Virus record (IMG/VR): IMGVR_UViG_3300032157_000372
Coordinates: 1-58,514 of that record
DNA length: 58,514 nt
DNA from: a virus
Lineage: Duplodnaviria > Caudoviricetes
Direction: 5' to 3' (one strand)
The position numbers and the translations under genes are program-made. This document shows, one piece after another, positions 21,530-47,234 of the stretch; the first letter of the stretch is position 1; each line of letters starts with the position of its first letter. The notes below the pieces were generated by a model. It was not told the DNA's origin and did not search any database. It worked only from the letters and a program-made list of their open reading frames with translations.

Positions 21530-23163
21530 AGCGCAAGCGCTACGACCCCGCCGACAACTCGGCCAAGAGCTACACGGCCGCGGTCGATGCCATTCGCATG
21601 GAGGGCGTCAAGGCCGGCCGCTTCCTGCCGCTTGCCGATCGGCCCGAGGAGATCAAGGCCTCGCCGATCGTCGACGACGTGCGCCGCATCGCCAATGGAA
21701 ATCACGGCCACGCCACCCTCTACCTCGGCGACTGCCGACGCATCGTGCCGCTGCTCGAGAACCTCGACGCGGCCGTGACCGACCCGCCCTACGAGCTCGG
21801 CTTCATGGGCAAGGGCTGGGACTCGAGCGGCGTTGCGGCCGCGTGGGAAACCTGGGGCGCGGTGCGCATCGCGCTGAAGCCCGGCGCGCATCTCGCGGCC
21901 TTCGCCGGCGCGCGCACCTATCACCGCATCGCGGCCGCGATCGACGACGCCGGTTTCGAGGTGCGCGACCAGATCATGTGGATTTACGGCTCGGGGTTTC
22001 CGAAGTCGCTCGACGTTGGCAAGGCGGTCGACGCGCTCGACGTCGTCGGCCCGCGCCGCAATCGCGCGCTGCGCTTCACCGCCTGGATGCGCTCGACCGG
22101 GCTCACGGCGCGCAAGATCAACGCCATCACCAAGACCGCGATGGGCAGCCACTACCTCACCGACGGCGAGCAGCCCGAGATCCCGACGCCGGAAATGTTC
22201 GACCTGCTGCGGCCGCACCTGGCCGCCGTGCCGCCCGACGTCGAAGCGCTCATCACCAGCCGCGCCGTCGAGAGCGAGAACGTCAAGCGGCGGCTGGTTG
22301 TCGGCCAACACGAGAAGCCTGCACATGCCGCGGAGTGGCGCGCGAGCCTCGGCCTGGGCGGTGTCGCGCCTGCCGGCGCGATCTCGCAGGCTTACACCGA
22401 CGACGCCAAGAAATGGGAAGGCTGGGGTACAGCGTTGAAGCCGGGACATGAGCCCGTGTGTTTCGCGCGGAAGCCGCTTTCCGAAGGCACCGTCGCCGCC
22501 AACGTGCTGCGCTGGGCGACGGGGGCGATCCATGTCGACGCTGGTCGTGTCGGCGACGATCGCATGATGCGTGAACGTTCGACAGGCCAACTGCTGACCA
22601 GCAATGGATCGATGGCCGGCGGCAAATACTCGCGCGAGAGTCTGGGCGAAGTCGAAGGCCGCTGGCCGGCCAACGTCGCCCACGACGGCTCGCTCGAGGT
22701 GCTCGAGTGCTTCCCGCCCTCGGCGCGCGATGCCATCCGGTTTTTCTACGCCGCGAAAGCGGACCGGGCCGAGCGTAACGCCGGGCTGAAGGAACTTCCT
22801 CTGAAAGCGCGCCCGACCATGGGCAACGGCATCGGCGGCCAGCCCGATCAGGGCCGCGCGAACAATCGCAATTCGCACCCGACCGTCAAGCCCGTCGACC
22901 TGATGCGCTGGCTCTGCCGCCTCGTGACGCCGCCCGGCGGCATCGTGCTCGACCCGTTCATGGGCTCTGGGACCACCGGCATCGCTGCCCTGCGCGAGGG
23001 CTTCTCGTTCGTCGGCTGCGAGCAGGACGCGGGCTATTTCGACATCGCGGCCCGGCGCATCCAGCACGCCGCCGACATGATCCGCCGCGAGCCTGATCTC
23101 GTGCGCGAGATCGCCGGCGCCATGACAAAGCGCCGCGCCGGCGACCAGGGAGAATTGCTGTGA
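21526..23163 (+). CDS. DNA N4/N6 methyltransferase (beta order)
   Basis: TDPPY, GFPKS, HPTVKP, LDPFMGSGTTG. Confidence 0.92.
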   Translation: MKRKRYDPADNSAKSYTAAVDAIRMEGVKAGRFLPLADRPEEIKASPIVDDVRRIANGNHGHATLYLGDCRRIVPLLENLDAAVTDPPYELGFMGKGWDSSGVAAAWETWGAVRIALKPGAHLAAFAGARTYHRIAAAIDDAGFEVRDQIMWIYGSGFPKSLDVGKAVDALDVVGPRRNRALRFTAWMRSTGLTARKINAITKTAMGSHYLTDGEQPEIPTPEMFDLLRPHLAAVPPDVEALITSRAVESENVKRRLVVGQHEKPAHAAEWRASLGLGGVAPAGAISQAYTDDAKKWEGWGTALKPGHEPVCFARKPLSEGTVAANVLRWATGAIHVDAGRVGDDRMMRERSTGQLLTSNGSMAGGKYSRESLGEVEGRWPANVAHDGSLEVLECFPPSARDAIRFFYAAKADRAERNAGLKELPLKARPTMGNGIGGQPDQGRANNRNSHPTVKPVDLMRWLCRLVTPPGGIVLDPFMGSGTTGIAALREGFSFVGCEQDAGYFDIAARRIQHAADMIRREPDLVREIAGAMTKRRAGDQGELL

Positions 23164-28634: not shown

Positions 28635-29240
28635 ATGACCGGCATCACCATAGATCTCGACATGCGCGAGTTCTCGAAGAAGGCGCGCCAGATGGGCATC
28701 TTCGCCGAGGATCAGCTCCCGTTCGCGCTCGCCAATTCGCTCAACGACACGATGTTCCAGGATACGCGCCCGCAGATCATCGGGCCGACCTGGGCGAGCG
28801 CGTTCACGGTGCGCAACTCGGGGCTGCCGCGTGCTGCGATCCGCGTCGAGAAGGCGACGAAGAAGGCGCTCACGGCAGGCGTGTACGATGCGCTCGGCAA
28901 GGTCGACCTGGCCCAACACGCCGACGGGGGCGAGAAGACGCACTCGGGGACGATCGCAGTTCCTGTTCGTGACAAGGTCCGCCTGCATGCGCGCGGCAAG
29001 ACGCCGTGGGCTAAGGAGCTGGAGCGCCGCTTCGGTCGTCGCGCCGTGAGGAAGACGGCGCGCGGCCTGTTCGTGGGCAAGGGCGGGCGGCTGCATCTTT
29101 GGTTTTCGTTCACGCAATCAGCACACCTCGACAAGCGTTTTGCGTTCTACGAGGACTTCGAGCGCGTGTCTGTGTCGGGCATCGTGCGCCGCTTCCCAGC
29201 CCACATCCAACGCGCGATCGCCTCTGCGTTCGGACGCTGA
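28635..29240 (+). CDS. Tail completion protein (lambda gpZ-like)
   Basis: QLPFALANSLNDT...FT motif; basic; immediately upstream of cos/terS. Confidence 0.6.
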   Translation: MTGITIDLDMREFSKKARQMGIFAEDQLPFALANSLNDTMFQDTRPQIIGPTWASAFTVRNSGLPRAAIRVEKATKKALTAGVYDALGKVDLAQHADGGEKTHSGTIAVPVRDKVRLHARGKTPWAKELERRFGRRAVRKTARGLFVGKGGRLHLWFSFTQSAHLDKRFAFYEDFERVSVSGIVRRFPAHIQRAIASAFGR

Positions 29241-29260
29241 GAGCGAGGCGCGCGCTCGTC

Positions 29261-29317
29261 GGGTCCTTTCCACAAATCGCCCCCACGCGGGTCACGCCCG
29301 ACCGCGAGGGATCGCTA
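29261..29317 (+). other. Lambda-like cos site
   Basis: GGGTCCTTTCC (lambda cosQ context), 23 nt, 12 nt, then CGCG-N5-TCGCTA; directly upstream of terS. Confidence 0.75.
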
Positions 29318-29349
29318 GAGACAGCATTTTTTTGGGGGGATTCCGCCAC

Positions 29350-29820
29350 ATGGCGACGCAGAGCGAATGCGCCGAGTGGCTTGATCTTTCCGAGCGCCGT
29401 TTCCGCGAGCTTCTCGATCAAGGCGCGATCGAGCGCGCCGAGAAAGGCCAGTACGACCTCAAATCCGTCGTGCAGCAGTACGTGCGCAACATCCGCGAAG
29501 TCGCCGCGGGGCGCGGCGGAGGCGAAGCGCAGACCGTCAAGGCCGATGAGGAAGCACGCTTGCTAAGGGCGAAGGCGGACAAGGCTGAGATGGAAGCCCA
29601 GGAGATGCGCGGCGATCTCGTGCCGGCTGCGCAGATCGCCGACACCGTCAACTCAGCCGTCATCATCATGAAAACGAGGTTAGGTGCCGTGCCGGCGAAG
29701 GCCGCACCCCTCGTCGCCGGCGTCAAATCGATCCCGGCCGTCGAGCGAGTGATCCGTGACAACATCGAGGAGGCGCTCGACGAGCTCTCGAAAACAGAGA
29801 TCGTCTCCGCCGCAGCTTGA
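29350..29820 (+). CDS. terS: Terminase small subunit (Nu1-like)
   Basis: N-terminal wHTH MATQSECAEWLDLSERRF...YDL; coiled coil. Confidence 0.88.
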   Translation: MATQSECAEWLDLSERRFRELLDQGAIERAEKGQYDLKSVVQQYVRNIREVAAGRGGGEAQTVKADEEARLLRAKADKAEMEAQEMRGDLVPAAQIADTVNSAVIIMKTRLGAVPAKAAPLVAGVKSIPAVERVIRDNIEEALDELSKTEIVSAAA

Positions 29821-31792
29821 TCTTCGACACGTCCACCCGGCCCTCGCCCGCGTCATCGCGCAAGCGTTCACTCTTTGTGCGCCGCCGCCCAAGCTTACCG
29901 TCAGCCAATGGGCCGACGCGCACCGTATCCTCTCGCCCGAGGACAGCGCCGAGCCAGGCCGCTGGCGCACGTCGCGCATGGAACCCATGCGCGAGATCAT
30001 GGACACCTACAACGATCCGCTGATCGAGGAGACGGTCACTCAAAAAGGCACGCAAATCGGCTGGACGGCGGTCCTCGGAAACGTCGCCGGCTTCGTGATC
30101 GACCAGGACCCGGCGCCGACGCTGCTCATGCAGCCGACGAAGGCGATGGCCGAGGAATGGTCGAAAGCCCGCCTCGCGCCGATGCTGCGCGACACGACGC
30201 GCCTGCGCGGCAAGGTCAAGGACCCGCGCTCGCGCGATTCCGGGAACACGATCCTGAACAAGGAATTCCCCGGCGGGCGCCTCGCCATCATCGGCGCCAA
30301 CGCGCCGGCCGAGATCGCGAGCCGCCCGATCAAGGTCGTACTCTGCGACGAGATCGACCGCTATCCGCTATCGGCCGGCACCGAAGGCGACCCGATGAAG
30401 CTCGCCGAGAAGCGGCAAGAGACGTTCTGGAACCGCAAACGGTTCAAAGGCTCGAGCCCGACCGTGAAAGGCCGTTCCGCCGTCGAGCGCGAATACGCGC
30501 GATCCGACAAGCGCCGCTACTATGTCGCTTGCCCGCACTGCGACCATCACCAGACGCTCCGCTGGGAGCAGGTGAAATGGGACAAGGTCAAGGGCGCCGA
30601 CGGCAAGAAGGTGCACGCGCCCGAGACTGCGCACTACCAGTGCGAGGATTGCGGCACGCTATGGAGCGATGCCGAGCGCTGGCAGGCAGTCGCGGCGGCG
30701 CCTAAGAAGGGCGCCGGCTGGAAGGCGACGGCGCCATTCCGCGGCATCGCGGGCTTCCACCTCTCGCAGCTCTACTCGAGCTGGGTGAAGCTCGAGAAGA
30801 TGGTGACGGAATTCCTCACCGCCTACGGCAAGCTGCCGGGCACGCATCCCGACGTCGAGCTCATGAAGGTGTTCACGAACACCGTGCTCGCCGAGACGTG
30901 GGAGGAGGAAGGCGAGACCGTCGACAAGTCGGGCATCAACAACCGCGGCGAGCACTACGGGCCCGACGACCTGCCCGAGCAGGCGCTCATCGCGACCGCC
31001 GGCGTCGACGTCCAAGGCAACCGCCTCGAGGTGCAGCTCATCGCGTGGGGCGCGGGCGAGGAATCCTGGCCGGCGCTCTACTTCGTGATCTCTGGCGATC
31101 CGGCGCAAGACCAGGTGTGGTCCGAGCTCGACGATCTCCTGCGCGAACCGCTGAGAACCGCAAGCGGCCGCCTGGTGCGCATCCGCGCGACGTGCGTCGA
31201 CACCGGCGGCCATCACGCCGCGCAGGTGCACGCCTTCTGCAAGAACAAGCTCGGCCGGCGCATCTATCCGATCGTCGGCGTCGCTGGCGCGAAGAAAATC
31301 TGGCCCGTCCGTGCCTCGCGATCGAAGCACGGCCACGTCTACTCGATCGGCGTCGACACGGCCAAGGATCAGATCCACGGTCGCCTGAAGATCCCGGCGA
31401 AAGCCCCGGACGAGGCCAATCCCGGTTTCATCCATTTTCCGCTTCCGAACGAGGACGCACGCACGGACGGCTTCAACGACGACTATTTCGACCAGTTGAC
31501 CGTCGAGAAGGTCGAGACGCGCTACCGCGAGGGCAAGCCCTACCGCGTGTGGACGAAGAAACCGGGCGAGCGCAACGAGGCGTTCGACACGTTCGTCTAC
31601 GCGCTCGCGGCGCGCATGAGCCTCCCTTGGAAGCTGCGCGCCGTCGTCTCCGAGCCCGACGCCGAGTCGGCCGTGCGTGCGCCGAGGCCGAAAGAGCAAG
31701 CGCCGGCGCCAGTCGTTGCCGCGCGCGCCGTCAGGCTCATCACAAAACCGCGCCGTGACCCGGCTGCGATCGCAAGGATGTTCAGGCGATGA
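29756..31792 (+). CDS. terL: Terminase large subunit (GpA family)
   Basis: KGTQIGWT Walker A, LCDEIDRY, SSPT, CPHC, GVDVQ, DTGG, RNEAFD; start uncertain. Confidence 0.95.
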   Translation: MTTSRRRSTSSRKQRSSPPQLDLRHVHPALARVIAQAFTLCAPPPKLTVSQWADAHRILSPEDSAEPGRWRTSRMEPMREIMDTYNDPLIEETVTQKGTQIGWTAVLGNVAGFVIDQDPAPTLLMQPTKAMAEEWSKARLAPMLRDTTRLRGKVKDPRSRDSGNTILNKEFPGGRLAIIGANAPAEIASRPIKVVLCDEIDRYPLSAGTEGDPMKLAEKRQETFWNRKRFKGSSPTVKGRSAVEREYARSDKRRYYVACPHCDHHQTLRWEQVKWDKVKGADGKKVHAPETAHYQCEDCGTLWSDAERWQAVAAAPKKGAGWKATAPFRGIAGFHLSQLYSSWVKLEKMVTEFLTAYGKLPGTHPDVELMKVFTNTVLAETWEEEGETVDKSGINNRGEHYGPDDLPEQALIATAGVDVQGNRLEVQLIAWGAGEESWPALYFVISGDPAQDQVWSELDDLLREPLRTASGRLVRIRATCVDTGGHHAAQVHAFCKNKLGRRIYPIVGVAGAKKIWPVRASRSKHGHVYSIGVDTAKDQIHGRLKIPAKAPDEANPGFIHFPLPNEDARTDGFNDDYFDQLTVEKVETRYREGKPYRVWTKKPGERNEAFDTFVYALAARMSLPWKLRAVVSEPDAESAVRAPRPKEQAPAPVVAARAVRLITKPRRDPAAIARMFRR

Positions 31793-32031
31793 CGGACGAG
31801 GAAAAAGCGCGCCTACAGGCGATCTTCGACGCCATCATTGCGAAAACGACCGGTCGCCAGGTGAGCCAGGCCGGCCACAAGGACAAGCAGACGAGCTTCG
31901 CCAGCGTCCCGCTCGCCGAGATGATCCGCCTCTACCGCATGCTGTGGAAAGCAGAGAGCGGATTGCCTCTCCTCGACGACGTCGGCCAGCCCTTCGTCAA
32001 GCGCGGGCCGCCCGCGCGCCACTACCACTAG
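31789..32031 (+). CDS. Head-tail joining protein (gpW-like)
   Basis: Small ORF between terL and portal. Confidence 0.7.
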   Translation: MTDEEKARLQAIFDAIIAKTTGRQVSQAGHKDKQTSFASVPLAEMIRLYRMLWKAESGLPLLDDVGQPFVKRGPPARHYH

Positions 32032-32040
32032 GGAGCGCCC

Positions 32041-33660
32041 ATGCAGTCTGCAGCACAGACGGCCGCGCCCGCCAAGCGCATTCCGTTCCGCGACGCGCTC
32101 GCCTCGCGCATGATGGCGGGCTCGAGCTCGGCCTACGCCGCGGCCTCGCAGTTCGATCGCCAGATCGCGCTCTGGAACCCGGCGCTGCGCTCGGCCGACG
32201 CCGAAGTGCTGCGCGACGCGGCGAAAATCCGCGCTCGCGCGCGCGATCTCTACCGCAATCATCCCTACGGCAAGCAGATCGTCCGCATGGCGGTCCTCGC
32301 CGTGGTCGGCAAAAAGCTCCGCTACGCGTCCAAGATCAATCACGTGTTCCTCGGCATCGACGAGGAAGAGGCGGAACGCTGGGACGGCGAATTCTCGCGC
32401 CTCTGGGAGCAGTACGCGCACGGGCCAGGCGCCTGGGTCGACGCCGGCCGGCGCCTCAACTTCTCGGCCTTCATGCGCCTTGCCTTGCGCTCGCGCATGG
32501 TCGACGGCGAGGCGCTCGTCGCCGCCGAGTGGATGCGCGGCCGCAGGTGGAAGACCTGCTTTCAGCTCGTCGACGTCGACCGGCTGTCGAATCCGCACGG
32601 ACGGCCCGACAGCGCCTACCTCAAGGGCGGCGTGGTGCTCGACGACGGCTCGGCGCCAGTCGGCTACCACATTCGCAACGGGCACCCGGCCGACATCGGC
32701 GTCACGGCGCCGCTGCGCACCAACACCTGGACGCTCGTGCCGCGAGAGACGGCCTGGGGCCGCCCGGTGATGCTGCACTCCTACCTGCAGGAGCGCGCCG
32801 AGCAGACGCGCGGCATCTCTGATTTCACGACCGTCATTCGCGCCATGCGCATGCAGCAGGAGTTCAGCGAGGCCGATCTCGCCTCCGCCATGATGCAAGC
32901 GATGTACGCGCTCGTCATCAAGTCGAATGCCGACTGGTCGAAGGCCATGGAAGCGATCGGCGGCGAGGTCGAGGTCGACGACAACGGCAACCCGGTCAAT
33001 CCGATGATGGCGATGGCGCTCGACCAGCTCGCGACCGCCGCCGCCTACCACAATGAGGCGAAAATCATCGGCTTCGACGGCGGCCGAATCCCGCACCTGG
33101 TGCCGGGAGAAGAGCTGCAGATGCTGTCGCCCGAGAACAAGGCGTCGAACGCGGCTGAGTTCACGAAATCTGCCGTCAAGCAGTTCGCCGCCGGCCTCGG
33201 CGCCGACCCGATCTCGGTCTCCCAGGACTATTCCGACGTCAACTACTCGTCGGCGCGCATGTCGGTCGCCTCGAATTGGCGCGCGCACGAGGTGACGCGC
33301 GGCGACCTGGTCTACGACATCGGCATGCCGATGGTGCAGGCCTTCCTCGAGGAGGTCGTGCACGCTGGCGTGCTCAAGCTGCCGAAGGGCGTCAAGGAGA
33401 CCGATTTCTACGACGCGCTGCCCGCGCTCTGCTCGGGCAATTTCCTGACCGGCGGCCCGCCGATGCTCGATCCCATGAAGGAGCGCCAGGGCCAGCAGAT
33501 GGGCTGGTCGCTCGGCCTCGACACGCTCGAGGAGATGGGCGCCGAGGAAGGCGACGACTGGAAAGAGAAGATCCGTCAGAAGGGGCGCGAGATCCGCTTC
33601 ATGCGCGAGCAGCGCGTGCCGCTGCCGGGCGAGCCTGTCGTGCCGCCGATGGCGCCTTAG
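32041..33660 (+). CDS. Portal protein, lambda family
   Basis: RARARDLYRN, VDGE, QTRGIS, DYSDVNYSSAR, DPMKE. Confidence 0.95.
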   Translation: MQSAAQTAAPAKRIPFRDALASRMMAGSSSAYAAASQFDRQIALWNPALRSADAEVLRDAAKIRARARDLYRNHPYGKQIVRMAVLAVVGKKLRYASKINHVFLGIDEEEAERWDGEFSRLWEQYAHGPGAWVDAGRRLNFSAFMRLALRSRMVDGEALVAAEWMRGRRWKTCFQLVDVDRLSNPHGRPDSAYLKGGVVLDDGSAPVGYHIRNGHPADIGVTAPLRTNTWTLVPRETAWGRPVMLHSYLQERAEQTRGISDFTTVIRAMRMQQEFSEADLASAMMQAMYALVIKSNADWSKAMEAIGGEVEVDDNGNPVNPMMAMALDQLATAAAYHNEAKIIGFDGGRIPHLVPGEELQMLSPENKASNAAEFTKSAVKQFAAGLGADPISVSQDYSDVNYSSARMSVASNWRAHEVTRGDLVYDIGMPMVQAFLEEVVHAGVLKLPKGVKETDFYDALPALCSGNFLTGGPPMLDPMKERQGQQMGWSLGLDTLEEMGAEEGDDWKEKIRQKGREIRFMREQRVPLPGEPVVPPMAP

Positions 33661-33703
33661 GCTGTGGCCGACGACGAAAAAACGAAGAAATCGGGCAAGG
33701 ACG

Positions 33704-36700
33704 ATGGCTAAGGAGCCGCTGCCGCGCAACTGGAAGGCCATGCGCGCCGATCGCGTGCTCGCCATGGCCGAGAACCGTTTCGGACGGCGCTTTTCGTCGA
33801 AGGCGGCGGCGATCGCCGAGCTATCGCGGCTTCCCAACGCCGAGCAGCGCTCGCTCAAGAAGGTTGCGGTCTCGAAAAGCGAGGCTGTGCGGCGTGCTGG
33901 TGCGTCTGACCGCATGATTTCAGGCATGTCGCAGGGGCAGAGACCGATGGCTGGCATTGCGGACGAGATCAAGGGCCTGAAGAAGGCGGACCTGCAGGCG
34001 ATCGCGCGCGAGGTGAGCGTCAGCACCAAAGGCAGCGTCTCGCAGCTCAGGGCCTCGATTGTGAAGCGCGCCACCGAGCATGCGCGCTTCGCCGCCAAGA
34101 ATTCTGTTGCTGGCCAGCTCGGCATAGGCATGGTGCTCGGCGGCACTGTCGACCAGTCCAAGGTGCGCTCCGCGACGGCGGCCGGCCGCGCCGAGATGGA
34201 GCAGCGCATCAGGGCCGCGATTTCCAAGGTCCGCGGCGGAGGCAGCGCGAGCAGCTCCGTCGAGGCGCTGTCGGCGAAAATCAACGCCACGCTAAAGAGC
34301 CCGACGCGCGAAAGCATCGCCGCCGTGCGCCAGGAGCTTGCCGCGGCGCGCCTCTCGAAGGTCGATGCGCATGCCATCGCGAAGGCCACAGAGCTGCCCG
34401 TCAAGGCGGCGTCGGCGGCCAAGGCGGTCACGGGCCGCCTCGACAAGCGGCTCGGGAGCCTCGCGAGCTTTCTTGCCAAGAAGGCCGCCGTCGGCGGCCG
34501 CGGCGCGGCCGGCATCGCGCTCGGCATAGCCGCGGGCGGCCTCGCGCTCGCCATGACCTCGCGCCAGTCCGAGGCCGCCGAGGGCAAGAAGCGCAACAAG
34601 GGCCCATCGGCGAACACGGTCAAGGCGAAAGAGGCCGAGGCGAACAAGGCCAAGGCGGAAGCCGAGCGGGCCGCCTCCGAATCGCGCGCGCGCGAAGCGG
34701 AAGCCCAGGCCCGCGCCCGCGAGGCCGAGGCGAAGGCCGCCGAGCGCAAGTCCGCCGAGGAGACGAAGCGCGAGGACGCGCGCATCAAGGCCGAGGAGCG
34801 GAAGCTCCGCGCCGGTCGCGAAGGCTACGCCGCGAACCTCAACCTGGCCGCGACCGCGGCCGGCATCGTCGGCGGCGTCGTCGCCGGCAAAAAGATCGCA
34901 GGCAAGGTCAAGGCCGACGACATCGCGGCCGAGAAGCTGCGCACGCGCCAGGCCAAACAACTCGCCGCCGCCGCCAAGGGCGGCAAGGGCGCTTCATCGC
35001 TCAAGGCGGTCGCCAAGACGGCTGCCGACATGAAAATCGTTCGCGCCGAATCGCGCAGTGCGCGGGCTATGAACGTCGCCGGCAAGATCGGTCTGCCCTA
35101 TGCGGCCGCTCTCGTTGTCGAGGGCGTGATCGCGCGCCAGGTCGCTGCCGAGCTCGAGGAGCGCGGTAACGTCGAGGGCGCGGCGATCGCCCGCGGCGTC
35201 GGCATGGCCGGCACCGTGGCGGCGGCGACGCTGATCGGCTCGCGCTCGACCGACCTCGCGTTCCCGACCAAGGCCCCGAACGCCGGCCACGTCGCGAAAA
35301 TCGAAAAGGCGCGCATTGACGCGGCCGAGAAGCCGAAGCGCCGCGCCGCGCGCACGAAAGCGGCCGCCGTCAAGGGCGATCCTGTGGCACAGCTCGCCAA
35401 AAACACGGGCGCGACGCTTTCGAAGGGCGCCAAGGCGCCGGCCGCGGCCGTCGCCGCCGCCGGCAAGGGCCCCGCCGGCTGGTCGGACGCTGCCCGCGCA
35501 GCCTCGGCGAAGGTGCGCGCCGCGAACGCGAATCCTGCCGTCCCGCCGCTGATGGAGAAGCAGCCGGCCGCGGCGAAGGCCCCGAATGCAGCGGCAGCCA
35601 AGGCCGCCGCTCCCAAGGCGCCCAAGGTGGCGACGGCGCCGAAGGTGCCGCCGGTCAAGGATCTGCGCGCGATGGCGAAGGCCGAGGGCGTCAAGGGCGC
35701 TCTCTCGATGAGCAAGAATGCGCTCGCCGCGACGTTGCGCGGGCTCGGCAAGCTGGTGCTGCCAGCCGCGATCGGCCTCACGGGCTATGCGGCCTTCCAG
35801 GACGAGGCCGCGGCCGCCGAGGCCAGCGGCGGTGACGCAACGGCGCAGGGCGCCACGGCCGCGACCAAGGCCATCACCGATTACCTCACCTTCGGCGCCG
35901 GCTCCGAGACGGAGAGATTGATGGCGGCCGGCAAGAGCCGCGGCGAGGCCGTCGCGCGCGGGATTGCCGTCGGCGCGATCAACACGGCGACGCTCGGCAC
36001 GGTGACCGCGCTCGACGAGGTCTACAAGGATCAGGGCGGCGCCGCCGCCTACGTCTTCGACAGCGTGCGCGACGCGGTCGGACATCTCGCGCGTGGCGTC
36101 AAAAAGGGTGTCGAGGTCGCGAAGTCCCGCCAGTCGGGCGAGGGCGAGCCGTCGAAATCCAGCGGCGCGGGCGAGGCGATGGCCGGCGCGGCCGCGGTCG
36201 GCGTCGGCATGGCCGACCACAAGTTCAGCAAGGCGCGGGGCAAGGCGCTGATCGCCGTCGGCGCCGGGCTCATCCTCGACGCCGCGATGAGGTCGGACGC
36301 CAAGGCCGAAGAGGCGCCCAAGGGCGGCCCGGTCGGCTTCCAGAACGAGGCGACGCTCAACGCCGCGCTCGAGGCGCAGGGCAAGGCTGCCTCGGGCGAG
36401 GGAAAGAAGGACGACACGGTCGACCGTGTCACCGACGGCGCCCTCGGCGTGGCGGCCGCCGGCTTCGGCGCAGCCCTCCTCAAGGAGGGGCGCCACAAGA
36501 TTGCCGGCCCCGCATTCCTTGCGCTCGGCACGGGAATGGTGCTGAGCGCGCTGGCGGGTGACGCCGACGCGGCCGAAGCGCCGAAGGGCATGCCGAAAGG
36601 AGCTGACGCGGAGAAATCCGACGCCGGCGTCGGCGCCGGGCTCACAGCGACGGGCGCCGTGCTCGCCGGCGGCGGCATCACGGCGATGAAGTTCGGCGCC

Positions 36701-37036
36701 GATGCGCTCAGGAACGCCGCGACCACGCTCGCCAAGGTGCGCGGCGGCGGCATCGCCGCGGCCGGCATCTCGCTCGCGGCCCTCGGCGTCGGCGCCATGC
36801 ACGAGGGCATCGACATCCTCAAGGGCAAGGAACCCGTGGCGCCGGGCAAGGCCTACCTCAACGAGGCGGCCGAGCGCAAAGCATCGAAGCCCGCGCCGAA
36901 GCCGAAAGCCTCCGTCGGCACCGTGGTCGCCGCGAGCCAGAAGAAGAAATCCGACGGCCAGACGGCCGGCTACACGCGCCGCTCGAAGACCGGCACGTCC
37001 GTCCGCGTCCAAGGCTACCGCACGCCGACCAAGTAG
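33704..37036 (+). CDS. Large Ala/Lys-rich protein of unknown function (candidate internal virion protein)
   Basis: 1110-aa ORF between portal and protease; glycine-zipper segments, SAP/Rho-N-like motifs. Confidence 0.8.
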   Translation: MAKEPLPRNWKAMRADRVLAMAENRFGRRFSSKAAAIAELSRLPNAEQRSLKKVAVSKSEAVRRAGASDRMISGMSQGQRPMAGIADEIKGLKKADLQAIAREVSVSTKGSVSQLRASIVKRATEHARFAAKNSVAGQLGIGMVLGGTVDQSKVRSATAAGRAEMEQRIRAAISKVRGGGSASSSVEALSAKINATLKSPTRESIAAVRQELAAARLSKVDAHAIAKATELPVKAASAAKAVTGRLDKRLGSLASFLAKKAAVGGRGAAGIALGIAAGGLALAMTSRQSEAAEGKKRNKGPSANTVKAKEAEANKAKAEAERAASESRAREAEAQARAREAEAKAAERKSAEETKREDARIKAEERKLRAGREGYAANLNLAATAAGIVGGVVAGKKIAGKVKADDIAAEKLRTRQAKQLAAAAKGGKGASSLKAVAKTAADMKIVRAESRSARAMNVAGKIGLPYAAALVVEGVIARQVAAELEERGNVEGAAIARGVGMAGTVAAATLIGSRSTDLAFPTKAPNAGHVAKIEKARIDAAEKPKRRAARTKAAAVKGDPVAQLAKNTGATLSKGAKAPAAAVAAAGKGPAGWSDAARAASAKVRAANANPAVPPLMEKQPAAAKAPNAAAAKAAAPKAPKVATAPKVPPVKDLRAMAKAEGVKGALSMSKNALAATLRGLGKLVLPAAIGLTGYAAFQDEAAAAEASGGDATAQGATAATKAITDYLTFGAGSETERLMAAGKSRGEAVARGIAVGAINTATLGTVTALDEVYKDQGGAAAYVFDSVRDAVGHLARGVKKGVEVAKSRQSGEGEPSKSSGAGEAMAGAAAVGVGMADHKFSKARGKALIAVGAGLILDAAMRSDAKAEEAPKGGPVGFQNEATLNAALEAQGKAASGEGKKDDTVDRVTDGALGVAAAGFGAALLKEGRHKIAGPAFLALGTGMVLSALAGDADAAEAPKGMPKGADAEKSDAGVGAGLTATGAVLAGGGITAMKFGADALRNAATTLAKVRGGGIAAAGISLAALGVGAMHEGIDILKGKEPVAPGKAYLNEAAERKASKPAPKPKASVGTVVAASQKKKSDGQTAGYTRRSKTGTSVRVQGYRTPTK

Positions 37037-37049
37037 GGCACCCCCGCAC

Positions 37050-38552
37050 ATGACCCAAGGCATTGCGATGCAGTCGCAGTCGCCGGGGACGGCGCATGCC
37101 GACCTCGGCTTCTGGCTGCAGAGCCAGATCATCGGCCAGCCGATGGCGATGCGCGAGGAGAACCTCAATGCGCTCGTCGAATCGATCGCCGCCAACCGCT
37201 TCTCGCTGCCGCGCAACCGCACCACGGGGGCGCGCATCACCGAGAAGGGCACGGCGATCGTCGAGATCCACGGCGTGCTCATCAACCGCATGCCGGTGAT
37301 GGGCACGTTCTGGGGCCTCACGGCCTACGAGGGTCTCGGCGAGCAGTTCCGCCGCATCAAGACCAACGCCGACATCAAGCGCGTGGTGCTCGACGTCGAC
37401 AGCCCCGGCGGGCTGGTCGCCGGCATCCGCACCTGCGCGGACGCGCTCGAGGACCTCGCCGAGGAAAAGCCGGTCTACGCGGTCGCCCACGACATGGCGT
37501 GCTCGGCCGGCTACTGGCTCGCGTGCATCGCCGAGGAATTGTCGGTCACGCCCGACGGCGACGTCGGCTCGATCGGCGTGCGCGGCGGCCACGTTTCCTA
37601 TGCCCAGCTCCTCGATCGTGCGGGCATCGACATCCGCGTGATCAAGGCCGGCCGGACCAAGGCCGACCACGCGATCAGCGAGCTGCTCAGCGACGGCGCC
37701 GCCGCCGAGATGCAGTTCACGTGCGACCGCCAATACGACCGCTTCGTTGCCCACGTCGCGCAACACCGGCCGCTCTCCGAGTACGAGGTGCGCGACACGG
37801 ATGCGCGCTGCTGGGTCGGCCAGGACGCGGTCGACGCCGGCCTCGCCGATCGCGTCGAGACGCTCGAGGAGCTCGTCGAGCGCATCGAGAAGAACACCGC
37901 GCGCGTCAAGCCGCGCCGCAAGCTCAAGACCGACAAGAGTTCCAAGGGCGGGCTCGCCCCTAGTCAGCGTTCGTCAGCGCCACCGCGGGCGCCGGGCGAC
38001 GACGAGCCGACCGCGGCCTACCCCCGCCACAGAGGAGGACGGACAGTGTCCGATCGCAACGAACCGGGCGCTGCCGGCCCGGATTACGCTCAAATCATCG
38101 CGGCCTACACGGCAGGCATCGCCGCGAGCAAGACGACGCCGGCGGCTCCCGCTGCCGGAGCGCCGGCGGCCCCGGCCGCTGCGGCTCCCGCCGCTCCGGC
38201 TGCTGCTGCGGCGCCCGCGACGCCCGCCGAGGCCGCGACCGCGGCGCGCGAGCGCATCAAGGCGATCATGGGCTCGGAGGCGGCCAAGACGCGGCCCGGT
38301 CTTGCCCAGCACATCGCGCTCGAGACCGACCTCGACGCCAAGACGGCGGAGGCGCTCCTCGGCGCCGCGCCGGCCGAGGCCGCCGCCGACAAGGGCAAGA
38401 CCGAGCTCGGCAGTGCGCTCGAGAAGCGCATGAGCCAGGGCGGCAACGCCGCCGGCATCAAGCCGGACGGCTCGGGCCCCGCCGCGCAGCGTCCCTCGCT
38501 CGCCGACCACGTCGCCGCCAAGTATCAACCCGCCGCCAAGAAGGGAGCCTAA
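37050..38552 (+). CDS. S49-family prohead protease/scaffold (gpC-like)
   Basis: DVDSPGG, MACSAGYWLA, VGSIGV, AVDAGLAD. Confidence 0.92.
   Translation: MTQGIAMQSQSPGTAHADLGFWLQSQIIGQPMAMREENLNALVESIAANRFSLPRNRTTGARITEKGTAIVEIHGVLINRMPVMGTFWGLTAYEGLGEQFRRIKTNADIKRVVLDVDSPGGLVAGIRTCADALEDLAEEKPVYAVAHDMACSAGYWLACIAEELSVTPDGDVGSIGVRGGHVSYAQLLDRAGIDIRVIKAGRTKADHAISELLSDGAAAEMQFTCDRQYDRFVAHVAQHRPLSEYEVRDTDARCWVGQDAVDAGLADRVETLEELVERIEKNTARVKPRRKLKTDKSSKGGLAPSQRSSAPPRAPGDDEPTAAYPRHRGGRTVSDRNEPGAAGPDYAQIIAAYTAGIAASKTTPAAPAAGAPAAPAAAAPAAPAAAAAPATPAEAATAARERIKAIMGSEAAKTRPGLAQHIALETDLDAKTAEALLGAAPAEAAADKGKTELGSALEKRMSQGGNAAGIKPDGSGPAAQRPSLADHVAAKYQPAAKKGA
38046..38552 (+). CDS. Nested scaffolding protein (Nu3-like)
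   Basis: In-frame GTG after GAGGAGG; ARERIKAIMGSEAA motif. Confidence 0.65.
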   Translation: MSDRNEPGAAGPDYAQIIAAYTAGIAASKTTPAAPAAGAPAAPAAAAPAAPAAAAAPATPAEAATAARERIKAIMGSEAAKTRPGLAQHIALETDLDAKTAEALLGAAPAEAAADKGKTELGSALEKRMSQGGNAAGIKPDGSGPAAQRPSLADHVAAKYQPAAKKGA

Positions 38553-38555
38553 CCC

Positions 38556-39233
38556 ATGGCCGTCGTCTCCAACTTCCCCAAGCTGTCGAGCGAGTGGCTG
38601 GTCCATGAGCTCGACTCCCGCATGCACCGCAAGCAGGGCACGATCCTCGCCGCGACGGGCAACCTCCCGACCGGCGCCGTGCTCGGCAAGATCACGGTCG
38701 CGGGCGCGTCCTCGGCCGCCAAGTCCGGCGGCAACACGGGCGGCGGCTCGCTGACGCTCGACGTGACGACGCCCGTGCTCGCCGACGCGAAAGCCGGCGT
38801 CTACACGGTGCGCTGCGTCGGTCTCGTCGCCAACGGCGGCCTGTTCGAGGTCAGGGACCCCGACGGCGTCGTGCTCGGCTCCTACACCATCGGCGGCGCC
38901 GCCTTCGCCAAGCACATCAAGTTTGCGATGGCCGATTCCGGCACCGACTTCGCGCTCGGCGACGGCTTCGACATCACGATTGCGGCCGGCTCGGGCAAGC
39001 TCGCCTACTACGACCCGACCGCCGTCAACGGCGCCGCGACGCCCTACGGCATCCTGCTCGATGCGCGCGACGTCTCGGGCGGCTCCGACGTGGCGGGCGT
39101 GGTCGTGACCGGCAACGCCGAGATCATCGCCCTGGGCCTCACCTGGGGCGCCGCGGTCGACGACGCGCCCAAGAAGGCGGCCGGCCTCGTGCTGCTCGAA
39201 AAGCTCGGCTTCATCGGCCGGCAGCTCGTCTAA
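38556..39233 (+). CDS. Head decoration protein (gpD-like)
   Basis: GAVLGKIT...YDPTAVNGA..PYGIL...LEKLGFI; between protease and capsid genes. Confidence 0.85.
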   Translation: MAVVSNFPKLSSEWLVHELDSRMHRKQGTILAATGNLPTGAVLGKITVAGASSAAKSGGNTGGGSLTLDVTTPVLADAKAGVYTVRCVGLVANGGLFEVRDPDGVVLGSYTIGGAAFAKHIKFAMADSGTDFALGDGFDITIAAGSGKLAYYDPTAVNGAATPYGILLDARDVSGGSDVAGVVVTGNAEIIALGLTWGAAVDDAPKKAAGLVLLEKLGFIGRQLV

Positions 39234-39263
39234 CCCCCGACCACACGCATGCCCGCCGCGACG

Positions 39264-39294
39264 GCGTCCGAGCGAAGCTCGGCTCCGCCGAGAC
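39264..39294 (-). repeat. 31-bp REP-like palindrome, copy 1
   Basis: Reverse complement matches 47303-47333 at 30/31. Confidence 0.8.
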
Positions 39295-39347
39295 CTACCG
39301 CGGCGGGGCCCGCGAACGGACGCTGACCCCACACAGAGGACCCTCTC

Positions 39348-40409
39348 ATGCAACTCGATTTTCTGCGCGACCCGCGCTACTCCGTCCGCAACGTGTCGGA
39401 CGCCATCATGAAGATCCCGAACGAGTATTCGCTGCTGTCGCAGTTCGGGCTCTTCCCCGAGAAGGGTATCCGGACGACCTATGTCGAGGTCGAGATCAAG
39501 ACCGGATTCCTCAATCTGATCCCGACCTCGGAGCGCGGCTCGCCGGCGACCGAGTCCAAGCGCTCGACCCGCCAGACCCGCGTCATGAAGACGCTCTTCA
39601 TGCAGAAGAACGCCACCATCCGGCCGTCCGACCTGCAGAACCTTCCGGCCTTCGGAACGCTCGACCAGGCCGGGAACGCGAGCGATGCCTTCTTCGAGTC
39701 CTTCGACAGCGAGCTCACGGATCGTTTCGACGATCTGCAGCGCGGCTACCGGCAGACGCACGAGTACATGCGTTGGGGCGCGCTCAAAGGCGACGTCTAC
39801 GACGCCGACGGCAGCCGCGTGCTCTACAACTGCTACACGGAGATGGGCGAGAGCCAGCAGTCGATCGATTTCGCGTTCGGCACGACCTCGTCGGATACCG
39901 TGATGGCGGCCTCCAAGGCCGGCCGGCGCTACATGGAGCAGAACCTGCTCGGTGAGCCCATGACGCGCCAGCTCGCGCTCTGCTCGTCGGAGTTCTTCGA
40001 CAACGTCTGCAACCATCCCTCCTACCGCAAGTTCTACGAGAACAATCCGGTGGGCAAGAACAACCCCGTGCTCGACGATCTCGGCGTCACCTACTTCCAG
40101 CACGGCACCTGGACCTACATCGAGCACAACGGGCAGGCGACCTACCTCAACGCCGACGGCACGACGGCGACGCGCCGCTTCATCCCCGCGAGCGAGGCGA
40201 TCATCGTCCCGCTCGGCACGCAGCAGGTGTTCCGCTCCTACTTCGCGCCGGGCGAGATGCTCGACGCGGTCAACATGCCGGGCCAGTCGATGTACGCCTC
40301 GCTCAAGGAGCTCGACCACGGCGGCGGCGTCGAGATCCACACGGAATCGGCGCCTCTGTTCCTGGTCCAGAAGCCGCGCCTCGTGCTGCGCGGCTACTCG
40401 AGCAACTAA
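39348..40409 (+). CDS. Major capsid protein (lambda gpE family)
   Basis: THEYMRWGALKG, ESAPL..KPR; position. Confidence 0.93.
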   Translation: MQLDFLRDPRYSVRNVSDAIMKIPNEYSLLSQFGLFPEKGIRTTYVEVEIKTGFLNLIPTSERGSPATESKRSTRQTRVMKTLFMQKNATIRPSDLQNLPAFGTLDQAGNASDAFFESFDSELTDRFDDLQRGYRQTHEYMRWGALKGDVYDADGSRVLYNCYTEMGESQQSIDFAFGTTSSDTVMAASKAGRRYMEQNLLGEPMTRQLALCSSEFFDNVCNHPSYRKFYENNPVGKNNPVLDDLGVTYFQHGTWTYIEHNGQATYLNADGTTATRRFIPASEAIIVPLGTQQVFRSYFAPGEMLDAVNMPGQSMYASLKELDHGGGVEIHTESAPLFLVQKPRLVLRGYSSN

Positions 40410-40436
40410 GAGCCACCGTCACACGCCGCTTTGTTC

Positions 40437-40467
40437 AAGGCCCGCGGGTGCTCCCTGCGGGCCTTTC
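40437..40467 (+). terminator. Terminator after capsid gene
   Basis: AAGGCCCGC...GCGGGCCTT stem followed by T's. Confidence 0.65.
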
Positions 40468-40534
40468 GCCATGCTGAAAGCATGCCTTCGGCATGACGAG
40501 CGCCGTCCGTCAACTCAAAGGGGGGAATTGCACC

Positions 40535-41005
40535 ATGCGCGTGAAGCTCTTGCGCGAGAAGACCGTCATTCTCGATGCCACCAACTCTCAGACCTGGCCC
40601 GCGGATTGGGCCGGCGACGTCGTGCCGGAGTTCCTGAAGCTCTGGAAAGAGGGCGTCGATTACGAGGTCCTGCCTCTCACCGCCGAGAGCCTCACGCCCG
40701 GCCAGCAGTTCACGGCCCAGCAGGCCGCCGCGCTGGCTCTCGTCGCCGAGCAGGTCATCGCGCAGTCGACGCAGATCGACGCCGGCGCTGGCGGTGCCGA
40801 CGTCGCCGATGGTGCCGCCGAACCTGTCGTCGCGCCCGATGTCGACGCGGCCGGCGAGGACGTCGCCAACATGAGCAAAGAGGAGAAAATCGCGCTCCTC
40901 GAGCAGCTCGACGCCGGCCAGATCAACGCTCTCGCTAAGGATCGCGGCGTGAAATACGTCGGCGTCAAGCGCGCGGCGGTGATTGAGGCGTTGGCCTCGC
41001 TCTGA
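40535..41005 (+). CDS. gpFI-position protein with C-terminal Rho-N-like motif
   Basis: QINALAKDRGVKYVGVKRAAVIEAL. Confidence 0.6.
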   Translation: MRVKLLREKTVILDATNSQTWPADWAGDVVPEFLKLWKEGVDYEVLPLTAESLTPGQQFTAQQAAALALVAEQVIAQSTQIDAGAGGADVADGAAEPVVAPDVDAAGEDVANMSKEEKIALLEQLDAGQINALAKDRGVKYVGVKRAAVIEALASL

Positions 41006-44878: not shown

Positions 44879-45048
44879 GCCGCGACGACGATCCCGACGA
44901 GGTCATCGACGAGCTCGTCGACCTGTGCTTCGACATGGCGCACATCCTGCACCAGCACCCGGACGCCTTCCTCGACCTGCCGCTCGATGAGCTCAACTTC
45001 TACGCCGACGCCACGGCTCGGCTCGCCAAGCGCACGAAAGGCAAGTGA
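44866..45048 (+). CDS. -1 frameshift extension of tail chaperone (gpGT/E'-like)
   Basis: -1 frame reads RLGRDDDPDEVIDELVDLCFDMAHILHQHPDAFLDLPLDELNFYADAT...* up to the tape-measure start. Confidence 0.75.
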   Translation, partial: FFRLGRDDDPDEVIDELVDLCFDMAHILHQHPDAFLDLPLDELNFYADATARLAKRTKGK

Positions 45049-47234
45049 TGGCCGGACCTCTCGACCTGCGCGGGCGCGCCACGATCTCGAACGGCGCCAG
45101 CGGCACGCTCGGCGCCATCAAGCGCGATCTGGCCTCGGTCGGCAACATGACCGGCCGGCGCACGGTGCCGCTCGGCACCGCCATCACCAACGGCATGATG
45201 AGCGGCGCCGTCGCGACCAAGAAGCTGCAGAACAACCTTGTCGGCGCGACGGCGGGCGCCTGGGCGCTGGTCTCGGCCGTCAGGAAGGCCGAGAGCTTCA
45301 ACCGCAACGTGTTCGGCGTCGGCGTGGCCGCGATCGGCGATTACACCGACCGCGTGAAGGACGCCGCGACCGGCACGGAAAAGGTCGTCGTCGACTTCGA
45401 CAAGGTGCGCGCATCCATGGAGCGCGTGTCGAAGCTCTCCAAGGACCTGGCGCACGAGATCCCCGAGACGCCGACCAAGCTCTCCGGGATCGCCGAAACT
45501 CTCGCCAAGGCGGGCTTCGGCGACGAGAAGCTCGCGGCGGCGACCAAGTGGGCAGCGATCCTGGGCTCGACCGATACCGAGACGGCTGCCTCCGAGCTCG
45601 GTGAGTTCGCCTCCGTTCTCGATACGATCTACAAACCACGCCAGGGCGAGGCCTGGGGCGACTACTTCAAGCGCCAGCTCGACATCGTGCGCATCGCCGC
45701 TGCCGAGACGCGCCTCTCGCTCGCGTCCACCATGGAAGGCCTCCGGCCCTTCTCGGCGCTCTACTCGCTGCTCGGCAACTCCGAAACCGACAACGCGATG
45801 CTGCTCATGGGCGGTGTGCGCAAGGGTGGCGAGGCGGCCGAGGTCGGCCACACGCTGAAATCGGACGCCATGCGCATGCTGCGCTCGACGGCGGAATCGA
45901 CGTCACGGTTCTCGGCCTTGGGCCTCCGGCGCTCCGACTACACCGACCTTTCGGCCATGGACCCGACGCGGGCGGCCGGTAACCTGTCTCGTGTGTTCCG
46001 CTCGGCCGACATCACGGGCAAATTCCGCAAGTCGATCGAAGCCGACATGCAGAAGGCCATCGAAACCGGGACGTTCGACACGGCCGAATTCCAAGACAAG
46101 CTCTTGGCCAAGGTGGCGAAGCGCGCTGGCGTCGACATGAAGGACGACGTCTCGCGCGAGAGCTTCGAGGACAAGTTCAACAACGCCATTTTTGCCGGCG
46201 GCGCGCGCTTCAACATGCGCAAGCTGTTCGAGGACCTGGTTGCCAAAGGCGCGACGGCGGCGGATGTCGGCACCATCTTCGAAGGCCGCCGCATCGGCAC
46301 CAACATCCAGATCCTCGAGGGCTTGAAGGAATTTGGCCCCGAGTTCATGAAAAAGCTCGAGATGGCAGACGGCACCGGCCTTTCTGCGGTGCTCGACCTG
46401 CTCAAGGAAAGCGATTACGGCCGCCTGCAGAAGTTCTCGGCCATGATGGAGGACTTCCAGATCAAGCTCGCCAACTCGGGCGGCTTCCAGACATTCCTTT
46501 CCGGCATCACGGCCGTGTTCGACACGCTAGGTCAGTTGCATCCGGCCGTCGTGAACATCGGCGTCGCCGCCGGCATCGCCGCGATCGCGCTGACGCCGCT
46601 GGCAATGCTGTTCCGCGGCCTCGCCGGAATGGCTCGTGTGCTAAGGGCGGCGCTCGCCTTCGTCGGCATCGGCGGCGCGGCCGCAGCAGCCGGCGGCGCG
46701 GCCTCGCGCATGGCCGCGGGCGGCCTGGCCGGAGCCGGGACAGCGGCGGCAGCGGGCCTCCTCAAGAAATTCGGCATCAAGGGCCTCGCCAAGCTCGGCG
46801 CGCGCTTCATTCCGGGCCTCGGCCTGGTCGTCATGGCGGGCGGGGCGGGCTGGGCCGCCTACGACGCCTGGCAGCGCGGCGAGGACGCGCTCGGCATCGG
46901 CAAGAGCGCCGCGCTGGGCGCGATCGGCCTCGACGGCATCGCGCAGGCGGGCGAGGCCCCGGCCGGCGGCGAGGGCAAGGCCGATCTCGGTCTCGGCGCC
47001 AACGCCGACGGCGCGATCGCGGACGCCCGGTCGGCCGCCGAGCAGATCCGCAGCGCCTTCCTCTCGGTCGACCTTTCGAGCGTCGGGCGCCAGATGATGG
47101 ACGAGCTCGCGGCCGGGATTCGCTCGGGCGGTGCCGCGGCGGTCGCGGCCGCCAACGACGTTGCGGCCCAGGTCCGCGCCGCCGGCGAGCGCGTGCGGCT
47201 CAACACCGGCCCCAACATGCAGCCTGCGCGCTGA
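45048..47234 (+). CDS. Tail tape measure protein
   Basis: Helical Ala/Gly-rich 728 aa with hydrophobic C-terminal region; position. Confidence 0.88.
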   Translation: MAGPLDLRGRATISNGASGTLGAIKRDLASVGNMTGRRTVPLGTAITNGMMSGAVATKKLQNNLVGATAGAWALVSAVRKAESFNRNVFGVGVAAIGDYTDRVKDAATGTEKVVVDFDKVRASMERVSKLSKDLAHEIPETPTKLSGIAETLAKAGFGDEKLAAATKWAAILGSTDTETAASELGEFASVLDTIYKPRQGEAWGDYFKRQLDIVRIAAAETRLSLASTMEGLRPFSALYSLLGNSETDNAMLLMGGVRKGGEAAEVGHTLKSDAMRMLRSTAESTSRFSALGLRRSDYTDLSAMDPTRAAGNLSRVFRSADITGKFRKSIEADMQKAIETGTFDTAEFQDKLLAKVAKRAGVDMKDDVSRESFEDKFNNAIFAGGARFNMRKLFEDLVAKGATAADVGTIFEGRRIGTNIQILEGLKEFGPEFMKKLEMADGTGLSAVLDLLKESDYGRLQKFSAMMEDFQIKLANSGGFQTFLSGITAVFDTLGQLHPAVVNIGVAAGIAAIALTPLAMLFRGLAGMARVLRAALAFVGIGGAAAAAGGAASRMAAGGLAGAGTAAAAGLLKKFGIKGLAKLGARFIPGLGLVVMAGGAGWAAYDAWQRGEDALGIGKSAALGAIGLDGIAQAGEAPAGGEGKADLGLGANADGAIADARSAAEQIRSAFLSVDLSSVGRQMMDELAAGIRSGGAAAVAAANDVAAQVRAAGERVRLNTGPNMQPAR

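Follow-up and report, generated by a model that had tools for sequence, protein, structure and literature searches.

A modular, cargo-like gene between the portal and S49 protease genes of a lambda-type head operon in an uncultured provirus

The DNA considered here is an IMG/VR provirus record (IMGVR_UViG_3300032157_000372) of 58.5 kb and 68.5% GC, hereafter called the window, whose lambda-type head operon encodes, between the portal and the S49 prohead protease, a protein of 1110 amino acids (aa) named P0001 (33704-37036, + strand). The gene is real, its product has a fused modular architecture, the slot that it occupies is conserved among close relatives, the products of that slot share a basic aromatic C-terminal tag, and the family is rare. 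The reading that we favour, with about even chances of being right, is that P0001, built of fused cargo modules, is an accessory protein packaged inside the lambda-type head of a contractile-tailed temperate phage, as an internal-head or ejection protein.

The gene and its place in the head operon

Since GC-rich DNA gives long open reading frames (ORFs) in several frames, the coding frame was tested by codon-position GC. The GC content at third codon positions (GC3) of the 1110-aa gene is 0.89 overall and 0.81-0.95 across every block of 300 nucleotides (nt), like that of the neighbouring head genes, and the coding frame shifts only beyond 37036. A Shine-Dalgarno sequence, AAGGA, lies 6 nt upstream of the ATG, and the protein start, MA(K)EP, is common to the homologues. 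The placement of a 1110-aa ORF between portal and S49 protease in the first-pass annotation was therefore correct, given these GC3 values and the PF05136 and PF01343 matches of the two flanking genes. The gap from the portal gene is 44 nt and that to the protease gene 14 nt, tight spacing or overlaps being found at homologous loci too, and the region 29000-41000 contains no promoter-like site (0 against 0.5 expected in shuffles) and no excess of terminator-like sites over shuffles. The 1110-aa gene is part of the late head operon, whose features are as follows.

29756-31792: gpA-type terminase gene
31789-32031: small gpW-sized ORF
32041-33660, + strand: lambda-family portal gene, directly upstream of P0001 (PF05136, E 2.4e-86; phrog_21)
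33704-37036, + strand: 1110-aa gene P0001, modular and cargo-like, 111 kDa, pI 10.3
37050-38552, + strand: S49 prohead protease with a C-terminal scaffold-like region (PF01343, E 4.4e-35; phrog_53)
38556-39233, + strand: D-like head decoration gene (PF02924)
39348-40409, + strand: E-like major capsid gene (PF03864), the two head genes together spanning 38556-40409

The longest ORF of the S49 protease opens at 36702, 335 nt inside the 1110-aa gene, and has an in-frame ATG at 37050. GC3 shows the frame of the 1110-aa ORF to be the coding one as far as 37036, so that this ATG is the probable start of the protease, giving a protein of 500 aa; automatic gene callers may mis-start it in the 36702-37049 region. 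The tail of the phage is contractile, with sheath, tube, tape measure and baseplate genes present, the tape measure protein being encoded in the tail module at 45045-47234.

Modules and relatives of P0001

Four parts can be distinguished in P0001, namely an N-terminal extension (aa 1-293) with a rare 55-aa domain, tentatively SAP-like, a core (aa 295-1110), Ala/Gly-rich hydrophobic segments and a conserved C-terminal module. Alignments show the protein to be the N-terminal extension fused to a core cargo protein, the parts being separate genes in sister phages. More precisely, the short forms P0114, P0115 and P0116 open with MAKE(T/A)KKQSG or MAEKRTKQQRSGTSKNTV (MAKETKKQSG.. in contig L012, MAKEAKKQSG.. 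in L011 and MAEKRTKQQRSGTSKNTV.. in L013), align with P0001 from aa 295 (KKRNKGPSANTV) and are colinear with it from there to the end. The gene of L019, like P0114 and P0116, begins at the same seam. L012 and L013 are devoid of any gene with the N-terminal domain (N-domain gene), and the L011 fragment leaves no room for one between the portal and the short form. L002 has the coiled-coil/hydrophobic module and the N-domain module on separate genes, each ending in a tail of type E (tail types are listed below), and L005 has three genes, whose tails are of types B, A and B. The term "polyprotein-like" used in the first-pass annotation is thus apt, the parts being encoded separately in sister phages and the first of its four proposed cleavage sites coinciding with the N-terminus of the short forms. 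A BLAST search of P0001 against itself gave no internal repeat, and the only DNA tandem repeats in the gene are short GC-rich ones in the coiled-coil region. The features along the gene, all on the + strand, are given below, where HeH stands for helix-extension-helix, KD for Kyte-Doolittle hydropathy, AF2 for AlphaFold2 and pLDDT for predicted local distance difference test.

33704-33931, +: N-terminal conserved domain, aa 1-76 (core aa 8-53), three short helices
33968-34081, +: HeH motif 1, aa 89-126 (Pfam SAP E 0.0026, sub-threshold; AF2 helix-loop-helix with pLDDT 72-76)
34499-34561, +: hydrophobic Gly/Ala-rich segment 1, aa 266-286, KD 1.69, kept in 10 of the 12 long homologues
34538-34582, +: site 1, aa 279-293, ..SEAAE, the seam between N-terminal extension and core in the alignment with the short forms
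34586-35338, +: core module, aa 295-545, charged coiled coil (aa 303-385) plus hydrophobic segments
35465-35521, +: GWSDAAR.ASA..RA motif, aa 588-606, with GWSD in all 12 long type-A homologues listed except P0016
35561-35653, +: Ala/Lys/Pro (AKAP) tract, aa 620-650, read from the sequence and missing in most homologues
35654-35737, +: HeH motif 2, aa 651-678 (Pfam Rho_N E 0.039 over aa 650-674, sub-threshold; AF2 confidence low)
35783-35821, +: site 2, aa 694-706, behind the hydrophobic segment LPAAIGLTGYAAF
35837-36088, +: conserved module with GAINTATLG, aa 712-795 (BLASTP P0004 6e-24, P0010 5e-22, P0116 4e-12)
36272-36313, +: site 3, aa 857-870, in a module found only in P0006, P0016 and partly P0008
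36539-36577, +: site 4, aa 946-958, with a similar GG.A.AAE in P0003, P0008 and P0016
36845-37033, +: C-terminal module, aa 1048-1110, made of GKAYLNEAAERKAS, a linker and the basic beta-hairpin DGQTAGYTRRSKTGTSVRVQGYRTPTK

The most conserved part of P0001 is its C-terminus, which reads G(K/R)AYLN(D/E)xAxxKA, an Ala/Pro linker of about 20 aa and DGxTxGYTRRxxxGxxVxVxxYRTP, with columns that are invariant across 19 sequences. In the AF2 model, strands at aa 1090-1093 and 1099-1102 form the hairpin (pLDDT 64-77). No second tag of this kind occurs in the window. Further family members and further slot genes end in differing tails of the same basic aromatic character, usually preceded by [YF][LI][ND]..A..KA, of the following types.

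Tail type A: DGxTxGYTRRxxxGxxVxVxxYRTP
Tail type B: YKxTWxDSRGRTYxRRDxSVR
Tail type C: YxRTYxKGPKAGxTExVR
Tail type E: FGRGWRNGRGxANRxVQ..AQAARxRVGK
Further tail type: GY.R.DG.RV.GYRRA

A profile of the tag matched, among PDB sequences, ribosomal L6 (E 3.6), taken as chance, and a word-index search with the last 71 aa recovered only P0001 itself. When the C-terminal 71 aa (19 rows) and the major capsid protein (39-row alignment) were submitted together to complex prediction, the score was 0.00, a value that counts neither for nor against an interaction.

The composition of P0001 is strongly biased (Ala 24.5%, Gly 11.1%, Lys 9.4%, Lys plus Arg 16%, no Cys), with a net charge of +76 and a pI of 10.3. 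Chance expectations were drawn from residue shuffles. Hydrophobic windows of KD at least 1.4 are enriched (7 against 2.1 expected, P = 0.002), as are uncharged runs of at least 18 aa (6 against 1.3), and windows above KD 1.6 show no enrichment (2 against about 1.0, P = 0.25). The glycine zippers noticed in the first reading of the sequence find no support as a statistical feature, both GxxxG (14 against 13.5) and GxxxGxxxG (2 against 1.5) being at chance level. Confidently modelled parts are the N-terminal domain, HeH motif 1, the long helix of aa 303-385 (pLDDT 70-86) and, at aa 1090-1102, the beta-hairpin of the C-terminus. In the model, the protein opens with a soluble helical domain and has no N-terminal signal or anchor.

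The N-terminal domain was modelled from 30 sequences with a pLDDT of 78, the AF2 values reaching 87-92 over aa 11-50. Its best VIA-align scores against 48,161 chains (Z 4.7) were to regions of SLX4 and FAN1, and 10 of the 50 rows shown were titled SAP or LEM (Z 2.6-4.7), although for a helical domain of 45 aa a Z under 8 may mean only a common helix arrangement. Foldseek gave nothing at E<=0.001 in PDB and BFVD, and the best match of the domain profile to PDB sequences, a TetR helix-turn-helix (E 0.09), was taken as chance. As a weak lead, this domain might be a third HeH-like unit of SAP-like fold, SAP/LEM domains aligning best with the model at scores below curated or meaningful thresholds. 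All motifs quoted in the first-pass annotation are present in the sequence, including the two HeH motifs, whose Pfam assignments stay below the gathering cut-offs (SAP 17.8 bits against 23.9; Rho_N 14.4 bits against 24.9); motifs resembling HeH motif 1 are also found in P0002, P0005 and P0006. As for the core, BLASTP of P0001 over aa 4-537 recovers P0010 (1e-73) and P0002 (6e-50), and P0042 matches P0116 through the core module (3e-20).

Relatives are few. The whole protein has no Pfam or PHROG family at E<=0.01, its seven segments give only sub-threshold or chance-level rows in Pfam and PHROGs at E<=5, PDB sequences yield no match at E<=1, and ESM Atlas no usable match. No full-length match to a characterised family was obtained in Pfam, PHROG, PDB or GenBank phage records. 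A word-index search found 5 relatives, having scored 8000 candidates only and being hampered by the Ala-rich composition. With a profile of the first 75 aa, 36 of 1.84 billion cluster representatives were retrieved at E<=0.001, 29 of them at E<=1e-10; they are 78 to 1206 aa long, with the domain N-terminal in nearly all, and 26 of the 36 end in a basic aromatic tail as read by eye. One of them, the DUF1542/GA-repeat surface protein P0034, was probably picked up through a chance match of helices. None of 29 family members contains a Pfam family, and the sole named genome match is a Hyphomicrobium metagenome-assembled genome. The capsid protein has at least 69 cluster-level relatives, so that sampling of the phage lineage is far denser than that of the N-domain family. 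The P0001 family is undescribed and so far confined to uncultured (pro)viruses. Among sequencing runs, those listed as containing the DNA are two soil metagenomes, possibly its source; no RNA run was listed, which speaks neither for nor against expression. On the side, P0019 (556 aa) has the domain in its interior, at aa 267-333, ahead of a NUDIX domain (PF00293, E 3.3e-14), and P0025, P0027, P0029, P0030, P0032 and P0033 (78-92 aa) are stand-alone versions with little beyond the domain and a leader of 20-30 aa.

The slot between portal and protease in related phages

A portal profile fetched 61 viral-contig loci, in which the stretch separating the S49 match from the end of the portal match was measured. 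Duplicate fetches of one contig were dropped (L003, L004, L006, L008, L010, L014, L021, L022). The near clade, defined by a portal at least 43% identical, comprises 15 distinct contigs, including the window, with both flanks visible. In 12 of them (window, L001, L002, L005, L012, L013, L016, L018, L019, L024, L026, L029), an insert of 1.8-4.9 kb holds one to three tightly spaced genes, all with a basic aromatic C-terminal tail (types A, B, E and GY.R.DG.RV.GYRRA), and in the other three (L020, L023, L027) the slot is empty. Near-clade contigs that end before the protease were left uncounted (L007, L011, L015, L017, L025); in L007 and L011, a family gene begins directly behind the portal. In the distant clade (portal 29-34% identical), portal and S49 genes are adjacent (<400 nt) in 24 of 35 loci, as had been expected in the first-pass annotation of lambda-type heads, with 0.5-1.1 kb between them in 10 loci and 3.2 kb in one. 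The metagenome contig L009 carries a gene with a type C tail followed by an N-domain gene. Small slot relatives of 150-177 aa in L029 and L016 appear to consist of a single hydrophobic segment between a basic N-terminus and a basic tail. The variable gene number and module content, together with the 3 of 15 empty slots, would fit an accessory role in host interaction better than an essential assembly protein.

Several observations on individual slots deserve mention. L002 and L029 share near-identical slot genes of 404 aa and have different second occupants: in L002 the shared gene is followed by an N-domain gene of 444 aa, and in L029 it is preceded by a gene of 150 aa, a difference that shows the slot to have been reshuffled very recently. 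The first slot genes of L016 (10584-12113) and L018 (10539-12065) have a weak peptidoglycan-binding-like start and the GY.R.DG.RV.GYRRA tail; the PG_binding_1 match in L016 (E 0.0033) is below cut-off and a lead only, which, if real, would fit an envelope-directed ejected protein. In the N-domain gene of L005 (4579-6003), the first 25 codons or so are out of frame relative to the near-identical P0026, probably through a frameshift or assembly error. In the distant loci L034, L035, L046, L060, L064 and L070, a 96-aa ORF lies between portal and S49 (e.g. L035 10577-10867), with a signal-peptide-like N-terminus, MKTTxRRGLLxLLAALPLAAAAP, possibly of Tat type; it is a different occupant of the slot.

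Possible functions of P0001

Portal-adjacent internal head or ejection proteins are already known as a kind, and P0001 is best filed there. As in the MuF type (SPP1 gp7, Mu gpF; PF04233), its gene lies directly downstream of the portal gene. SPP1 gp7 is encoded right after the portal gene and is a DNA-binding, portal-bound minor head protein of 1-2 copies, and many MuF proteins carry variable C-terminal cargo (PMC5576092). The analogy with MuF-type internal head proteins drawn in the first-pass annotation is correct for other phage types (PMC5576092) and does not extend to kinship, since no MuF domain was found in P0001 (0 Pfam families at E<=0.01, none in its segments at E<=5) or in its family (0 of 29 members). 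The polarity is also opposite: in contrast to the variable C-terminal cargo of MuF proteins, the P0001 family has a conserved C-terminus and variable N-terminal modules, in a lambda/S49 head.

A further comparison is with the C-terminal cargo-loading peptides of encapsulins and the coat-binding C-termini of scaffolding proteins. The products of the slot genes, otherwise unrelated, likewise bear a short C-terminal tag, which could steer them into an HK97-fold shell; there is no sequence relation, and the address role is here a putative one, by analogy. Podovirus ejection genes lie after the tail genes, not beside the portal gene. Their products (T7 gp14-16; P22 gp7, gp20, gp16), to which P0001 is likened, are large, mostly helical, internal proteins with predicted membrane segments that are soluble before ejection (PMC8954989, PMC8402733). 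More precisely, T7 gp16 is large, soluble despite predicted transmembrane regions and endowed with a DNA-binding C-terminal part, and its conserved positively charged C-terminal residues are needed for infectivity (PMC8954989). P0001 differs from them in belonging to a phage with a contractile tail and its own tape measure protein, and has no match to podovirus ejection families among PHROGs at E<=0.01, with only chance-level rows at E<=5. The identity of P0001 itself as a tape measure protein was considered and rejected, the only hit being phrog_21358 at E 0.2 and the tail module having its own. Finally, T4 IPI-III/Alt and the SPN3US/phiKZ cargo combine, as the slot genes may do here, one short terminal address common to several cargo proteins with a prohead protease encoded nearby (PMC10052503, PMC12991175). 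In T4 and SPN3US, the address is N-terminal and the protease T4 gp21-like, whereas the P0001 locus has a C-terminal shared element and an S49 protease.

According to the reading that we favour, P0001 would be made from the late head operon and would enter the prohead through its C-terminal module, "AYLN..KA + basic aromatic tail", which may serve as an incorporation address or else as a tail that binds DNA or a partner. The adjacent S49 protease might then trim P0001 or leave it whole. At infection, it would exit the head, its hydrophobic segments engaging the membrane and its HeH/SAP-like and basic parts holding DNA. Packaging, ejection, contacts with membrane and DNA, and any cleavage are all steps that we infer. 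Several points weigh against this reading. The full-length AF2 model, built from six sequences, has a mean pLDDT of 45.6, and the DNA-binding assignments of P0001 are all sub-threshold. Neither P0001 nor the short form P0114 has a match in 50,697 GenBank phage records, and the closest GenBank phage portal is only 34% identical, leaving the phage without a cultured relative. The tail of the phage is contractile, with a tape measure protein of its own, and phages of this kind are not known to need podovirus-type ejection proteins. Besides, the seven hydrophobic segments could make P0001 an inner-membrane protein of the producing cell, which would then be unpackageable.

A more ambitious form of the packaged-protein reading, which we hold to be unlikely, is an undescribed cargo system of lambda-type heads, in which the C-terminal module (AYLN..KA with a basic aromatic beta-hairpin or an RGG-like tail) would be a capsid address. 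It would load a fast-changing set of membrane-active and DNA-binding modules, whether these come from a single fused polyprotein or from one to three genes; the S49 protease would separate the modules at the conserved hydrophobic-AxA(A/G)E seams, and once ejected they would ready the envelope and keep hold of the DNA as it enters. Cleavage is also the centre of the proposal made in the first-pass annotation, that the S49 protease or host signal peptidase cuts P0001, as a packaged polyprotein, at AxA|(A/E)E into pieces that condense DNA or enter membranes, to which we give a rather low probability. The segments in question are internal (aa 279-293, 694-706, 857-870 and 946-958), and show a hydrophobic stretch followed four times by [SA]-A-x-A-[AG]-E, with S-E-A, A-A-A, A-K-A and A-D-A at positions -3 to -1, that is, with small residues at -3 and -1, which are mostly retained at sites 1 and 2 among homologues. 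Conservation holds for sites 1 and 2, kept in most homologues, and for the terminal GYTRR...YRTP; sites 3 and 4 are present only in the few homologues with those modules. Site 1 marks the border of units that are separate elsewhere, as would be expected if the fused form is re-separated. Site 2 lies inside every form, and most of them, P0114 and P0116 included, retain its [SA]-A-x-A-[GA]-[EDQ] behind LPxxAGxxAxxAF. All four sites can also be read A-x-E; the SPN3US ejection proteins are cut after AXE by the prohead protease (PMC10052503), and T4 gp21 cuts after I/LxE (PMC12991175).

However, the SPN3US and T4 proteases are of another family than S49, and the pattern count is barely above chance, A.A[AE]E occurring 4 times against 1.17 in residue shuffles (P = 0.034), with one of the four matches in the coiled coil rather than behind a hydrophobic segment and with the proposed site 1 reading S.A, not A.A. 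At the seam, P0001 reads ..SEAAE then GKKRNK and P0004 ..VMAAEKKRK, and what is conserved at site 1 may simply be left over from the start (MAEK.. or MAKE..) of the downstream gene. A.A[AG][ED]-type motifs, looked for in portal, protease, D and E, were uninformative, with one each in portal and protease and no conserved placement. As for the host enzyme, a basic cluster just behind a cleavage site disfavours Sec export, and site 1 is directly followed by AEGKKRNK, or by AEKKKK or AEKKRK in homologues, sites 2-4 being followed by acidic or neutral residues. Because the segments are internal, and not N-terminal n-h-c regions, and basic residues follow site 1, cleavage by signal peptidase I is unlikely. 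A DNA-condensing role of the pieces is implausible by stoichiometry, +76 charges per 111-kDa molecule facing about 117,000 DNA phosphates.

P0001 could instead be an accessory scaffold or core protein that builds or sizes the prohead, is degraded by the S49 protease and is gone from mature virions, which strikes us as quite unlikely. Its position in the head-assembly cluster beside the protease, the long coiled coil of aa 303-385 and the low-complexity Ala-rich composition agree with such a role, and its basic C-terminal tail is reminiscent of the C-termini by which scaffolding proteins such as that of P22 bind the coat, the tails of protease/scaffold ORFs being basic and aromatic too (..AAKYQPAAKKGA, ..ARFPNPRNSKKRA). 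Yet the S49 ORF already has a scaffold-like C-terminal region, no role is obvious for the hydrophobic segments and HeH motifs, and close relatives that lack a slot gene (3 of 15) or fill it with anything from 150 aa to three genes are unlike what would be expected of an essential size-determining scaffold. The remaining possibility, to which we also accord little weight, is a non-packaged membrane protein of the infected cell, acting as a portal/prohead/DNA tether or as a late exclusion or lysis-timing factor. The seven hydrophobic segments, two of them above KD 1.6, and the build of the small relatives in L029 and L016 would suit it, and HeH motifs joined to a membrane anchor follow the logic of a DNA-membrane tether, as in LEM/HeH proteins, T4 head assembly moreover starting at the membrane. 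Nevertheless, P0001 has a soluble helical domain at its N-terminus rather than a signal or anchor, its segments are Ala/Gly-rich and marginally hydrophobic, and placement between portal and protease with a shared C-terminal tag would be more typical of virion components.

If P0001 is packaged, it would be the first tagged internal cargo in lambda/S49-type heads, would offer a short transferable C-terminal address for loading a well-understood capsid type, and its family would form a natural fused/split series for asking whether S49 prohead proteases process cargo. If not, it would represent an orphan accessory gene family of uncultured soil prophages.

Some features of the window lie apart from these questions. 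The D-like decoration protein is 225 aa long, and the 116-position HDPD profile spans its residues 8-218, which implies an insertion of about 100 aa; its homologues in L001 and L005 are of equal size. Elsewhere, the provirus encodes an SNF2-type helicase (15497-17248), an N6/N4 DNA methylase (21484-23163) and a 418-aa protein with a phage lysozyme domain (56207-57463).

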